This document shows, one piece after another, positions 10,360 to 13,821 of a stretch of DNA of 64,000 bases (positions are counted from its first letter, which is position 1; each line of letters begins with the position of its first letter). This DNA comes from Cyanobacteriota bacterium (GTDB lineage: Bacteria > Cyanobacteriota > Cyanobacteriia > Cyanobacteriales > Nostocaceae), in contig JBJOKS010000001.1 of NCBI GenBank assembly GCA_046045965.1, positions 160,001-224,000 on the forward strand, given 5' to 3'. Made by a program: the position numbers and the translations under genes. The notes under the pieces were generated by a model. It was not told the DNA's origin, ran no database searches, and saw only the letters and a list, made by a program, of their open reading frames with translations.

Positions 10360-10743
10360 ATGTCGGACACATCCAATTTTCAAATTACCATTGCTTTCAC
10401 TGATACAGACTTAGACAACGAAGACAAAAATCAGGAAGTGCAGAAGCTACTGAGTCAAATGCAGAAGCTAGATGAAATAGAAGACGTTAACCGCGTTCTT
10501 GACCCCAACCCCCCGGAGGGAAACAAAGCTGGAGGAGGTTTTTTACCCGGACTACTAACAGCACAAGTTAACCCAGCCAACTTTTTGAAATTATTTGGAT
10601 TTTTGGCAGAACGTTTGGGTAACAAACCGATTAAACTCAATGTTAAAGCCCCAGATGGTCGGGAAATAAACGTCGAAGCCAGCAGTAAAGAAGAATTTGA
10701 ATTTGCTTGGCAAAAAGCACAAGATTTTATTAATAACAAATAA
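10360..10743 (+). CDS. Effector-associated constant component (EACC1)-like protein
   Basis: Acidic helix, P-PEGNKAGG turn, hydrophobic hairpin, then beta strands; ends 9 nt before a caspase-domain gene. Family assigned from pattern and context. Confidence 0.6.
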   Translation: MSDTSNFQITIAFTDTDLDNEDKNQEVQKLLSQMQKLDEIEDVNRVLDPNPPEGNKAGGGFLPGLLTAQVNPANFLKLFGFLAERLGNKPIKLNVKAPDGREINVEASSKEEFEFAWQKAQDFINNK

Positions 10744-10752
10744 GGCTGGACA

Positions 10753-12525
10753 ATGGCGAGAATTGCACTATTGATAGGAGTAAGTGAATATGAACCAGGC
10801 TTAAATCGACTGGCTGGGGCTGTAAAAGATGTGGACGCAATGCGGCGAGTTTTACAGCATCCAGAAATGGGTGGTTTTGCTGAGAGTGAAATTATAGTCA
10901 TGCAAAATCCCCAACGACAGGATATGGAAAATGCTATTGAAAAGCTTTTTGCTAACCGTCAGAAAGATGATTTATTGTTGCTTTATTTCTCCGGTCATGG
11001 AATTACAGATGATAGTGGGAGGTTATATCTAACTAATAGCCAAACTCACAAATATGACAATGGTAATTTAGTTATAACTAGTGCTACTTCTGCCAGTTTA
11101 ATACATCAATTTATGGACAATGGGCATTGTAAGTCTAAACGACAGGTGATTATTCTTGACTGTTGTTATAGCGGAGCTTTTGCGGAAGGGATGAAAGTAA
11201 AAGATGGTGGTAGTGTAGATATTAATAAGCAATTAGGAGGAAAAGGTAGGGCAGTTTTGACTTCTTCCTCTTGTGGCGAATATTCTTTTGAACAAAGAGG
11301 AGAAGAATTATCAGTTTATACCCGTTACATTGTTGAAGGTATTGAAACTGGTGCGGCTGATACTGACAACGATGGTATGATTTCTGTGGACGAATTACAT
11401 GAATATGCCTTCAAAAAAGTGCAGGAAGCAGCACCAGCAATGAGTCCAAAAATTTATGCTGTGGAAGAAGGTTATAAAATTAAGGTAGCAAATGCACCTG
11501 TTGGTAATCCCAAATTAAAATATCGCAAGGAAGTAGAAAAATATTTACGAGATGGTAAAATTTCAACTATTGGTAATCGAATTTTAAAACGTTATCAAAA
11601 TGAATTGGGTTTATCAGATGATGAAGTTAAGGAAATACAGGATGAAGTTTTAGAACCTATTCGTAGATATCAAGCTAATTTGAAAGAGTATGAAGAAGCT
11701 TTGCGAGAAGCTTTGGAAGATGAAACAAGTCTTAGCCAAGAGACACAAAATGAGTTAAAACACTTTCAGCAAGTTTTACAACTTAGAGATGAGGATGTAG
11801 AACCTATTCACGATAGGTTAATTTTGTCTTCAAATCATCCCTCAGAACAAACAATCATTGCACCTCCTCAAACTACTCAACCTTTAGAACTGCTTAACTC
11901 ATATCTTGGTTCTCAACCAAACATTTCAGCAGTTGAGGCTGGAGAGATTATTAAGTCAGGTCAAAATATACAAGCTCCTACTCAAACAGATGACCTGTCA
12001 TCAGAAAGAGGCATAGACTACACCACACTGCGCGACTTACTAGCAGCACAAAAATGGCAGGAAGCAGATACAGAAACCTACGAAGTAATGATTAAAGCTG
12101 TAGGTAAAAAGTCTGGGGACTGGTTTACAAGTGATGAATTATTAAATTTCCCATGTAAAGACCTCCGCACAATTGACCAATTGTGGGTAAAATACAGTAA
12201 TGGACGATTTGGGTTTAGCGTCCAAAAGGAAATTTACTTGAGTGTTGGTGGTAAGCCTGATGGCGAGTATGACTCAGTTGCCTGGGTTAGATTTGCTAAA
12301 AAAGTAGGATGGAAAAACGAAGAAGATAAATGGATAGAAAAGGTAAAATTTTATACCTCAGCCCCGAAAGGACACTTACCTGTAAGTTTGGATTGGAGAT
12401 TAAGTTGGATAGAGGATGAATGGGAAGGATTAGAAGGATTGAGTTGGGAGTTATGGGAAGTATGGATGAGTTGGGTGGTTGGTTTCTCTTCTCTCGCATC
12501 GAGACTTGTAAACTGTAACATCTAA
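10753..12525 (+). CDS. Caspase-like (peptidase C14) protein with helical linker and C-terminal GUN4 domain
   Basis: ALLIGVSEY; YFSGHG (His) and ILDCCYSG (Cys) dyad; GUN4 motifs DYTTLRDLLAAQKWQEADTET, FPCKDLRTIDQLWVKYSNGRFGFSVQ, APKGHLP. Confidence 0.92.
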   Translation: MARIALLIGVSEYEPGLNRLAGAVKDVDAMRRVLQHPEMGGFAESEIIVMQNPQRQDMENAIEKLFANRQKDDLLLLYFSGHGITDDSGRLYLTNSQTHKYDNGNLVITSATSASLIHQFMDNGHCKSKRQVIILDCCYSGAFAEGMKVKDGGSVDINKQLGGKGRAVLTSSSCGEYSFEQRGEELSVYTRYIVEGIETGAADTDNDGMISVDELHEYAFKKVQEAAPAMSPKIYAVEEGYKIKVANAPVGNPKLKYRKEVEKYLRDGKISTIGNRILKRYQNELGLSDDEVKEIQDEVLEPIRRYQANLKEYEEALREALEDETSLSQETQNELKHFQQVLQLRDEDVEPIHDRLILSSNHPSEQTIIAPPQTTQPLELLNSYLGSQPNISAVEAGEIIKSGQNIQAPTQTDDLSSERGIDYTTLRDLLAAQKWQEADTETYEVMIKAVGKKSGDWFTSDELLNFPCKDLRTIDQLWVKYSNGRFGFSVQKEIYLSVGGKPDGEYDSVAWVRFAKKVGWKNEEDKWIEKVKFYTSAPKGHLPVSLDWRLSWIEDEWEGLEGLSWELWEVWMSWVVGFSSLASRLVNCNI

Positions 12526-12558
12526 GGCTTTCAGAAATCTGTAAATATTTATTACAAC

Positions 12559-13314
12559 CTACTTTCCCACGGAAGAATCAACATTTGCGAATTTCGTTAC
12601 CTGGCACGGCGGGGTTATCTCCTGCACCTCCGTACTTTCTGTTACCCTCTGCTTATCCCAAGGTAAACTCATCTGTCCTGGTGACTTCTTGCTTTTACCG
12701 CTTTTCTTCATCGACGGTAAAAACCGACTTCCCCAATAGTTTCTTTTTTCTGGTTTGGCCTTTGGTTTATACTTCTTGCAAAACCGCCGATATTTAGCTG
12801 CACATTCTTCCAGAGTCCTCCCCAATTGCAAAAATGCCGGATGCCATTGAGTGATACCATCATTACTCAAGCGGTCATGAGTACCATAATTACTAAAATC
12901 ATAAAAAAAGCCTTGTTGTATTCCTGCTGCTTTCGGGTTAGCGTGGATATAGCGTAAAGTATTTAAGGCACGACGATAATCTGTATTTTCAAACCCTGTA
13001 CTGTGGTATCGCTTTTCCCAAAAATGACCTGTACGGTTCAGCATCCGATTAAAACACATAGCAGTGTACCAGTTTAACCAGTGCATAACTTTTGGTAATT
13101 CTTCTGGCTGTTTTGGTTCTAGGAGATAATGAACATGATTACTCATAATGCACAGTGCATAGAGTTTAAAACCATACTTTTGTTGTGCTTTTTTAATCGC
13201 ATAAAGAAAAACTTCACGACATTCTAACCGTGTAAGTCGAAATTCGCGGTTATTGCAACGGGTAGTGATGTGATAACAGAAACCTGGTTGAAAATTGCGT
13301 TTTGGACGAGACAT
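12559..13314 (-). CDS. Y1 HUH transposase/nuclease, REP-associated tyrosine transposase (RAYT)-like
   Basis: YHITTRCNN, CIMSNHVHYL (HUH), GHFWEKRY, YIHANP (catalytic Tyr), FSNY. ATG at 13314 preferred. Confidence 0.88.
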   Translation of the reverse strand: MSRPKRNFQPGFCYHITTRCNNREFRLTRLECREVFLYAIKKAQQKYGFKLYALCIMSNHVHYLLEPKQPEELPKVMHWLNWYTAMCFNRMLNRTGHFWEKRYHSTGFENTDYRRALNTLRYIHANPKAAGIQQGFFYDFSNYGTHDRLSNDGITQWHPAFLQLGRTLEECAAKYRRFCKKYKPKAKPEKRNYWGSRFLPSMKKSGKSKKSPGQMSLPWDKQRVTESTEVQEITPPCQVTKFANVDSSVGK

Positions 13315-13327
13315 GGAGATAACAATT

Positions 13328-13483
13328 TTAGGCAAATAATTCACCACCAGCAGACCGGGGTATGATATGCTCAAATTCAAAAGTTGTAACTGTTAAATAT
13401 TCAGCAGTACGACAGTAAGCACAACAATCTGAAAAACAATGACGAATTTTTGTTTGTAATTCAACAGAAATATAAACACTCAC
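13328..13483 (-). pseudogene. Truncated HNH endonuclease
   Basis: Manual translation MSVYISVELQTKIRHCFSDCCAYCRTAEYLTVTTFEFEHIIPRSAGGELFA*: has CxxC and EHIIPxSxGG but lacks the N and second CxxC; GTGA overlap with the upstream gene. Confidence 0.85.
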
Positions 13484-13821
13484 GCTACTCTAGATTTGTT
13501 TTGAAGTTGGTTTAATGTATATCTTGCTCTAGTTTTAAGAATATTCAATTGATCAATCTGTGCTATTAATCTTTCTAAAGTTTCACTTTCTTCATTTGAC
13601 AATTGATTCTCAGAATTTTTCATTAATAACTCATCTAATCGAATCTGACTTTTAAGAGACAAAGAAGTTTCTGCTAAAGCTTGCAACTCATCCAAACTTA
13701 AACCAATCAATAATTCAGTATCTGCTGATAAATTGGTTAGCTGTTGGTAAGTTTCCAGATTTAACAATACACCAACTTTTTCTCCCTGGGTATTAGTTAT
13801 ATACTGCACTGATTCAGACAT
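13480..13821 (-). CDS. Hypothetical antitoxin-like partner of the HNH gene
   Basis: 113-aa ORF translationally coupled to the HNH remnant; C-terminal RLDELL...LKTRA helix. Confidence 0.7.
   Translation of the reverse strand: MSESVQYITNTQGEKVGVLLNLETYQQLTNLSADTELLIGLSLDELQALAETSLSLKSQIRLDELLMKNSENQLSNEESETLERLIAQIDQLNILKTRARYTLNQLQNKSRVA

Follow-up and report, generated by a model that had tools for sequence, protein, structure and literature searches.

The window analysed here comprises 64,000 nt from a bacterium of the Nostocaceae (assembly GCA_046045965.1, contig JBJOKS010000001.1, positions 160,001 to 224,000 of the forward strand), and our subject is the 3' end of a gene on its + strand (10753..12525) that encodes a 590-aa protein with a caspase domain (Peptidase_C14, residues 3-224, E 1.5e-24) and a GUN4 domain (residues 417-555, E 1.5e-41). 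This end has a left boundary, a spacer and a closing block. The boundary lies in the codons for GHLP (GGACACTTACCT, 12370..12381), at which the longest strings common to different loci stop. It is followed by a private hypervariable spacer of 103 nt without a single C (12382..12484), unrelated to the spacers of orthologues, and by a conserved end block (12485..12525) that is read in three frames in different genes. The block consists of a pyrimidine run, TCTCTTC (12485-12491), where homology among loci resumes, a hairpin with a 5-bp stem, TCTCG-CAT-CGAGA (12492-12504), and three TAA codons (at 12509, 12516 and 12523) that stand 7 nt apart, one per reading frame. A non-coding continuation of the block (12526..12561; 60-90% column identity across loci), which includes a small hairpin, TGTAA-ATATTTA-TTACA (12540-12556), extends to the stop codon of a convergent gene on the - strand (12559-13314). 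This gene encodes a Y1 (HUH) protein of 251 aa, counted from MSRPKRNF (Y1_Tnp, E 6.5e-19), which resembles the tyrosine transposases (RAYTs) associated with repetitive extragenic palindromes (REPs).

A sequence-only reading of this DNA had reported a C-free, in-frame tract that reuses short words and ends at a pyrimidine run and a hairpin, and all of these features were confirmed on recount. The C-free run of the + strand extends over 12381..12485 (105 nt; 43 G, 34 T, 28 A, 0 C) and is the longest in the window, where the runner-up has 49 nt; at the window's C frequency of 0.19, the expectation for such a run in 64 kb under independent, identical draws is 2.5e-6. It is in frame within the open reading frame (ORF) 10753..12525, both other sense frames contain stops, and its 34 full codons (12382-12483) specify VSLDWRLSWIEDEWEGLEGLSWELWEVWMSWVVG. 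Given this peptide and the codon usage of 1123 long ORFs of the same genome, the probability of finding no C is 10^-4.37 (about 4e-5), with serine written four times as AGT, arginine as AGA and leucine five times as TTR. The lack of C is therefore a property of the tract's DNA and not of its peptide, and amino-acid composition, which had been named as an explanation that would refute the earlier interpretation, does not account for it. The reused words form in-frame direct repeats at spacings of 39, 33 and 27 nt, each a multiple of 3, and internal in-frame duplications account for part of the tract's length. Tandem Repeats Finder (TRF) detected no tandem array in 12300-12560, and no simple repeat or homopolymer of the contingency-locus type there; the longest G run is 3 nt, while spacers at some other loci have G runs of 7-12. 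A tandem-repeat origin of the tract was ruled out on the negative TRF result and on the presence of recent internal repeats in just 11 of the 204 distinct spacers described below. A base-free run is not in itself unique to this tract: 11 further C-free or G-free runs of at least 94 nt occur in the genome, and 9 of these read as short-period tandem arrays (of TTGGTAA heptamers, for example).

The end module across cyanobacteria

The tract is the longest fully C-free case of a recurrent GUN4 3'-end module in cyanobacteria. Other GUN4 genes of the same genome end in copies, at 90-93% identity, of the final 41 nt of the window's gene, with a different and unalignable segment before each copy, and a pattern search of the genome located 10 block-like sites, 9 of them at GUN4 gene ends. 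The block is read as SSLASRLVNCNI plus stop in the window and on contigs C86, C13 and C34, as (S/Y)LLS(H/R)(R/P)DL plus stop on C10, C71 and C35, which is the frame of the canonical Gun4 ending SLLSHPAWS, and as IFSRVETCGL plus stop on C15. The convergent gene at 12559-13314, the tail with one stop per frame and the finding that SSLASRLVNCNI is one of three readings go beyond the sequence-only reading. On C86 (C86:400-2000, L002/L006), an open frame of 805 aa, measured from stop to stop, encodes three tandem GUN4 domains and runs on across an internal block to the domain that follows. Several GUN4 gene ends (on C10, C15, C34, C71 and C9) have one or two copies of a dispersed repeat, roughly 40 nt long (GTCAGAATCAGGATAACCAGGATTAAAGGATGTACAGGAT and its variants), in the next 250 nt.

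Beyond this genome, a query of 1.2 kb of the window matched 30 of the 41 genomes of relatives searched. The 30-nt core of the block shows 0-2 mismatches in many genera, compared with 67-78% identity for GUN4 coding DNA, and in the best orthologue (L010), where the ORF stops ahead of the block, the core is still identical at 30 of 30 positions. Conservation sets in abruptly 7 nt ahead of the hairpin, and upstream of this onset the G content climbs to 43% and that of C drops to 9%. On the other side, solved Gun4 structures align as far as two positions past GHLP. An exact-pattern scan with one genome per species yielded at least 118 block stretches, which with the window make 119 sites; among the matches listed, 102 of the 119 have a GUN4 domain within 400 nt upstream, and the 17 others are mostly truncated GUN4 ends or contig ends. 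The block pattern, with up to 2 mismatches, also matched 62 of 201 genomes drawn evenly from the order as a second, independent sample, in which a reversed control matched none; this sample added 92 sites in 61 other genomes, 86 of them with a GHLP-type boundary. In a contig of Scytonema sp. PMC 1070.18 (L107), a spacer and block close a long ORF for a STAND-type NTPase, with no GUN4 domain detected upstream, and the end module may not be strictly bound to GUN4.

Counted by eye over 97 rows, the first block stop is TAA in 73, TAG in 15, TGA in 6 and a non-stop in 3, and the second is TAA in 93 and TAG in 4. Retention of stops through exchange among TAA, TAG and TGA argues for a long-standing length instability that selection has accommodated. 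The hairpin, for which conservation at synonymous positions had been put forward as a check, is conserved together with its surroundings, and in fact in all three frames. These loci establish a module with sharp boundaries, whose block is conserved at the DNA level, used in three frames and under selection for its stops; the fixed boundaries that the sequence-only reading had proposed for a variable cassette are found where homology stops at GHLP and resumes at TCTCTTC. The block looks heptad-built. No Rfam family matched 12200-13500 at E<=1, and a metagenome scan that used the window's own left boundary gave 0 matches. Full-text searches of the literature turned up no account of a hypervariable tail on GUN4, of a gene end used in three frames or of a link between GUN4 and RAYTs.

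Spacer composition was determined in both samples. The first set comprises, among the matches listed, 89 spacers with a clear GHLP-type motif (18-144 nt, median 56; A 18, C 12.6, G 37, T 32%; frame classes 47/26/16), and the second 86 spacers (23-161 nt; A 15.7, C 10.6, G 42.2, T 31.5%; frames 38/25/23). Lengths over the two samples thus run from 18 to 161 nt. Among 204 distinct spacers, which average 11% C, 15 are fully C-free (23-103 nt; none is longer than the window's) and 5 are A-free. C-freeness is accordingly the extreme of a general C-poor bias. This bias is flat over codon positions (G 0.38/0.34/0.40; C 0.13/0.13/0.115), with the adjacent GUN4 DNA showing the usual periodicity. It has a direction as well: over 133 unique junctions, the last 15 nt of the spacer, on the block side, hold less C (9.1% vs 14.0%, p 0.003) and more G (41.7% vs 35.3%, p 0.004) than the first 15 on the GHLP side, and the C-free suffix is longer than the C-free prefix (mean 17.6 vs 11.3 nt; at least 30 nt in 28 vs 14 of the 133). 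These gradients hint, weakly, that new spacer material is G/T-rich and C-poor, more so on the block side. The sequence-only reading had suggested strand-specific loss of C, and one could suppose that deamination or another strand-specific hypermutation had removed C from a once normal coding sequence; the coding strand does favour the keto bases (G and T) over the amino bases (C and A), and C is missing altogether from the window's tract. What is enriched in the tract, however, is G and not T (41% and 32%, against a window background of 19.6% and 30.8%), and related spacers are either unalignable or differ by exchanges among G, T and A and by insertions and deletions, not by C-to-T changes, over lengths of 18-161 nt. 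We consider such an origin very improbable.

Although composition is flat over codon positions, the spacers are kept open in the frame that is used. In the first set, the used frame is open in 83 of 89 spacers, compared with 36.3 +/- 4.3 in composition-matched shuffles (maximum 51 in 1000) and with 30 and 40 for the other frames; in the second, it is open in 84 of 86, compared with 40 and 45. Selection therefore maintains openness in the used frame. All three frames are open together in 11 of 82 spacers, a slight enrichment over the 6.7 +/- 1.8 expected, and selection for three-frame openness was set aside as weak. Some spacers also bear traces of how they were filled. A second copy of the spacer's own boundary motif lies inside 6 of the 133 (0.2 expected), at least 10 nt copied from the upstream 250 nt inside 9 (2.2 expected), and at a distant locus (L198) the boundary and the start of the spacer are present in four tandem copies. 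In this way a minority of spacers have gained material from local duplications or from sequence close by, the GHLP boundary among it, and the boundary and upstream copies are probably marks of local template switching.

Replacement of the spacer between fixed boundaries

The alignment of the window's protein with its nearest relatives (P0003, P0004 and P0005, at 82-84% identity) ends at GHLP; the spacers are unrelated, and the block is read in different frames, all three of which are in use. Syntenic orthologues have spacers of 48, 56 and 49 nt (L048, L076 and L032), likewise unrelated to the 103 nt of the window; in L048, the caspase is 88.5%, the Y1 protein 93.5% and the downstream gene 88.7% identical. 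Two closer pairs bring the comparison to more recent divergence. The loci L066 and L070 are collinear over 1.9 kb, 97% identical over 250 nt upstream and 95-96% identical over 275 nt downstream, which include a non-coding Y1 remnant, and their identity falls to a random level of 33-43% from two nt past the GHLP codons up to the block. No donor copy of either spacer is present in either genome. The loci L149 and L186 share a near-identical unit of GUN4 domain, spacer, block and about 50 nt, with unrelated DNA on both sides; their flanks are 99.3% identical (2 substitutions in ~440 nt), and their spacers have the first 44 nt in common and then diverge into C-free parts of ~41 and 76 nt up to the block. 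Taken over all pairs, a higher flank identity does not go with more similar spacers. The comparison of spacer with flank variability that the sequence-only reading had called for comes out in its favour, with unrelated spacers in orthologues at 82-84% identity and in pairs with flanks at 97-99%. These sequence comparisons show that the spacer is replaced in place, wholesale and much faster than its flanks change, with the events confined to this slot. Exchange of spacers between paralogues was considered and ruled out, since among the 133 unique junctions a prefix longer than 9 nt is common to one pair only (L149/L186), and no second copies of the L066 and L070 spacers were found.

The near-identical L149/L186 unit between unrelated flanks raises another possibility, that GUN4 domain, spacer, block and Y1 gene spread as a unit and that the spacer is junction filler, made once per copy and decaying thereafter. 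This would be consistent with the 3' remnants of Y1 beside 25 of the 119 blocks (among the matches listed), as if each copy had once possessed the gene, with the internal blocks of tandem multi-GUN4 genes, and with GUN4 DNA that is up to 94-97% identical between genera. The window and its orthologues, however, are syntenic on both sides (caspase, Y1 and downstream gene) and differ in their spacers, and L066 and L070 are collinear over 1.9 kb, which in both cases points to change in place; moreover, there is no conserved second end past the Y1 start codon, and Y1 is single-copy in the genome. We regard a unit of this kind as improbable.

A more serious contender is a passive hot spot: what follows GHLP would be dispensable and free to drift, low-complexity G/T-rich DNA would undergo slippage, duplication and changes of frame, and selection would do no more than remove stops. 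The block would then be kept as an RNA 3'-end element or as a binding site of the Y1 gene, and Y1 would be an unrelated selfish or tamed neighbour. Internal duplications do occur, and C-free tandem heptamers throughout the genome suggest a genome-wide slippage bias towards G, T and A only. Spacer composition is independent of Y1, and many genomes have blocks only. An origin of this kind sits poorly with the L066/L070 island, at 33-43% identity between flanks of 95-97% that include a non-coding Y1 remnant, and with the complete divergence of 41-76 nt in L149/L186 against 2 substitutions in ~440 nt of flank. Recent internal repeats in just 11 of 204 spacers, the window's tract without a tandem array, and the retention of one stop per frame by exchange of TAA, TAG and TGA, which argues for a length instability of long standing that selection has accommodated, speak against it too. 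A passive hot spot is in our judgement possible, if rather unlikely; with moderate confidence we favour a slot-specific turnover process that fills a hypervariable spacer in the GUN4 end module.

Several observations count against such a process, some of which also favour a passive origin. Intergenic DNA upstream of Y1 is likewise unalignable at 88-93% flank identity, so that the orthologue comparison at that distance proves little, and the case for wholesale replacement depends on the two pairs L066/L070 and L149/L186. The spacer is identical in all 15 pairs with 100% identical flanks and in one pair at 97.3%. The L066 and L070 spacers hold 18-24% C, even though the pair is young, which shows that C-freeness is not general. 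The within-population variation that the sequence-only reading had anticipated was not seen. For population data, contigs of four public runs were compared over 11600-13500 at 85% likeness, of which X1 is probably the source sample and X3 and X4 come from other samples and studies; X3 and X4 have contigs that match the window without a difference (100%) at 12284-12441 and 12299-12467, and the comparison lists neither a substitution nor an indel in the tract. Being contigs, from which rare variants are dropped, these data speak for consensus-level stability in the same strain, with minor variants invisible. Loose contig ends at 12485/12486, where three upstream sequences were compared, belong to other GUN4 paralogues of the genome and are not variants of the tract, and two apparent skips (from 12216 or 12236 to 12485/6), each seen in one contig whose sides are short, are likewise joins of paralogues.

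The linked Y1 gene and known diversity generators

The Y1 gene is the candidate for an enzyme in this setting. Its start was placed at MSRPKRNF, where conservation stops, as the listed ORF to 13380 starts too early. The protein is best matched by the model of REP-associated tyrosine transposases (REP_Tyr_transpos, NF047646), at 72.3 bits vs a cut-off of 80, and reaches 23.2 bits vs a cut-off of 55 with the IS200 model; it has no sequence relative in the Protein Data Bank. The HUH motif and the tyrosine of YIHANP are conserved in full-length copies, by which the linked gene is predicted to be catalytically intact. It is single-copy in the genome, against about 9 blocks. Among the matches listed, 38 of the 119 blocks have a Y1 gene, or what is left of its 3' end, within 400 nt (13 full length, 25 partial), and at 37 further sites the downstream flank is too short to tell. 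In the order-wide sample, Y1 was found at E<=1e-20 in 46 of 201 genomes, several copies of which abut a block; by-eye counting of the overlap found Y1 and block together in 21 genomes, Y1 without a block in 25, a block without Y1 in 41 and neither in 114. Among 16 further Y1 copies, 8 point towards the end of a GUN4 gene that has a diverged block, 1 has a block-like end at a contig edge, and 7 have no GUN4 end or block, 2 of them with less than 300 nt available. Conservation extends from the block to the Y1 start codon and then drops to ~45%, with no conserved second end beyond it. Two Y1 copies in other families, L204 (G195:C74) and L205 (G169:C69), have no GUN4 gene or block downstream, and another conserved non-coding stretch is common to both.

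The linkage of Y1 to the module is strong, and linkage is also what ties Y1 to the variation. Other evidence is unfavourable to a role for this protein. As many as 41 of the 62 block genomes lack Y1 at E<=1e-20, and 25 of the 46 Y1 genomes lack the block at up to 2 mismatches. Spacer composition is the same whether the adjacent Y1 is full, partial or absent (p 0.46 and 0.61), and does not differ between genomes with an intact Y1 (18 sites) and without Y1 (56 sites; C, p 0.51; G+T, p 0.90). The hairpin stem has just 5 bp, and as single-stranded DNA the block folds no better than its shuffles (z -0.4 and -0.05). We doubt that Y1 is the enzyme of spacer turnover. If a slot-specific process does fill the spacer, it could begin with recurrent breaks or nicks where the block starts on its 5' side, and resection and a biased, partly template-switching refilling would follow; the RAYT-like Y1, acting on the block hairpin, is the candidate nuclease suggested by its linkage. 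Whatever frame translation is in when it leaves the spacer, the block stops it, and selection retains only the in-frame, open fills, from which the variable peptide is made. Such turnover could serve to vary the C-terminal tip of the GUN4 sensor in an EACC1-type caspase conflict system.

Diversity-generating retroelements (DGRs) are the system to which such a sensor tip would first be compared. In cyanobacteria, DGRs act on multidomain sensors with kinase, caspase or vWA N-termini and C-type-lectin/FGS ends, according to the parts of the sources considered here (PMC7159879, PMC7517822, PMC10907252). The GUN4 module resembles a DGR target in that the C-terminal part of a conflict-system sensor is hypervariable within fixed limits and has a conserved element and a hairpin immediately 3' of it, and in that one enzyme gene stands against several target genes per genome. 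Unlike a DGR, it comes without a DGR-type reverse transcriptase (RT) or template repeat, is free in length and frame, and undergoes changes that are not adenine-specific; its domain is GUN4, and its linked enzyme is an HUH Y1 protein. The assembly searched (5.29 Mb, 92% complete) contains no second copy of the tract, with only matches of 15-33 nt (E 0.01-5.5) beyond the conserved tail, no template repeat that differs at adenines and no reverse transcriptase of the DGR clade. Its sole RVT_1 gene (C75:5507-7691, L194) is retron-type by PADLOC (best models RT-Protease_XI, 449 bits, and RT-TIR_XII), and no direct repeat of at least 40 nt lies beside it within its 8-kb contig. The claim of a non-DGR origin has in this respect held up. 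The retron-type gene is followed by a 335-aa ORF that matches no family, and upstream of it, on the opposite strand, is a gene for an HNH nuclease. A DGR that acts in trans would fit a class of protein in which DGR targets are known, as conflict-system sensors of cyanobacteria are among them, according to the three sources above. In this genome it would have to do so without a tract copy, and with a single, retron-type RVT_1 gene that has no repeat of at least 40 nt. A DGR would also vary a region of fixed length in a C-type-lectin or Ig-like fold; spacers here vary between genes, from 18 to 161 nt and in three frames, and the domain is GUN4. We consider that this explanation can practically be dismissed.

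Other known systems share single traits with the module. REPtrons, which pair a RAYT (TnpA-REP) with REPs, resemble it in a single-copy Y1 HUH gene with a short conserved hairpin in several copies at gene ends, and in the retention of the elements by genomes without the enzyme. GTAG-tagged REPs occur in Anabaena and Nostoc, in the part of Di Nocera et al. 2013 (PMC3733652) that we draw on. The module differs in that Y1 falls below the RAYT cut-off (72.3 vs 80), is not flanked by REPs on both sides and has the hairpin on one gene side only, and in that the elements number about 9 rather than tens to hundreds, all in or at the end of one gene family and translated; dispersed extragenic tagged copies were not found in number (9 of the 10 sites are at GUN4 ends), nor, by reading either strand, was a GTAG or CGTC tag beside the block hairpin. 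The IS200/IS605 family has in common with the module the fold of a Y1 transposase, a sharply delimited end and a subterminal hairpin. Here the IS200 score is 23.2 bits vs a cut-off of 55, one end is conserved, the gene is single-copy, and its 251-aa product has a long C-terminal extension. Contingency loci are similar in that a change of length shifts the frame of a surface- or immune-type gene, and some spacers do have G runs of 7-12. Unlike in these loci, there is no simple repeat in the window's tract, whole fills and not repeat units are replaced, and a finished protein results in all three frames instead of an on/off switch. The junctional (N-region) diversity of V(D)J recombination is comparable in outcome only, with a non-homologous, biased filler between two fixed ends and a filter for open frames; there is no evidence here for its enzymes or for somatic variation.

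To our knowledge, targeted hypervariation of bacterial proteins has so far been tied to reverse transcriptases (DGRs), to gene-conversion cassettes or to simple-repeat slippage. The module may represent a means, so far undescribed, by which a sensor is varied with no reverse transcriptase involved. In its boldest form, this would be an RT-free diversification slot in the GUN4 immune sensors of filamentous cyanobacteria, at which a domesticated, RAYT-like HUH nuclease nicks single-stranded DNA on the 5' side of the hairpin block and a largely untemplated, C-poor refill follows. We think this version unlikely. Were it true, bacteria would have a counterpart of junctional diversity, with a repertoire of sensor tips in which the heptad-built block, with its stop in each frame, makes a finished protein of every refill. 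Should a dedicated enzyme write the spacer, the module would represent a novel class of diversity generator and would give a tamed HUH transposase a new function; should there be none, the module would still be an unusual, order-wide gene end adapted to chronic frameshifting. A sensor domain of an apoptosis-like conflict system has here a translated slot, set between fixed DNA boundaries, whose content is replaced wholesale, and a closing element seemingly built to tolerate any change of length. In either case, this is a concrete and testable locus in culturable strains of Anabaena and Nostoc.

The conflict-system setting and minor features

The caspase of the window matches NCBIfam NF047832 (caspase_w_EACC1) at 166 bits vs a cut-off of 140, and the combination of this caspase type with a sensor-type C-terminal domain is that of EACC1-type caspase conflict systems. 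The EACC1 match upstream is weak: a small ORF of 127 aa on the + strand (10360..10743) resembles an EACC1-like adaptor (Pfam EACC1, E 0.0046, 17.4 bits vs a cut-off of 23.6), and fits the NCBIfam name of the caspase, 'EACC1-associated type'. The window's protein is the sole member of its 90% cluster. GUN4 is listed as a cyanobacterial domain of conflict systems in a study that also discusses DGR-varied FGS domains (Kaur et al. 2020, PMC7159879), Vallota-Eastman et al. 2020 (PMC7517822) include a GUN4-like domain in their list of those at the N-termini of DGR targets, and the portion of Doré et al. 2024 (PMC10907252) consulted makes no mention of GUN4. The PADLOC model PD-T4-6, of a phage-defence family, matches the GUN4 domain (window 11941-12414, residues 397-554, E 6.9e-45) over model positions 284-429 of 450, which indicates a GUN4-like domain at the C-terminal end of that model.

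Beyond Y1, the segment 13480-14502 of the window encodes a 113-aa protein with weak matches to RelB/Phd antitoxins below their cut-offs, followed by overlapping ORFs of 129 and 61 aa without a family; the first two of these small ORFs are syntenic in relatives. Elsewhere in the genome, long tandem arrays of heptamers without C on one strand (TTGGTAA, GGGTAAT and GGGATTA/GGTGATT) make up most of the long base-free runs, and lie at C16:17171-17289, C18:65946-66044, C12:125178-125284, C35:14093-14238, C98:2976-3144 and C10:115957-116058. A G-free run of 187 nt on contig C5 (C5:24620-24806) is built of an 18-nt repeat, which on the complementary strand has one open frame that specifies (VGVGEF)n. 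Two C-free runs that are not tandem arrays occur at C63:8577-8685 (109 nt) and C13:46667-46769 (103 nt).

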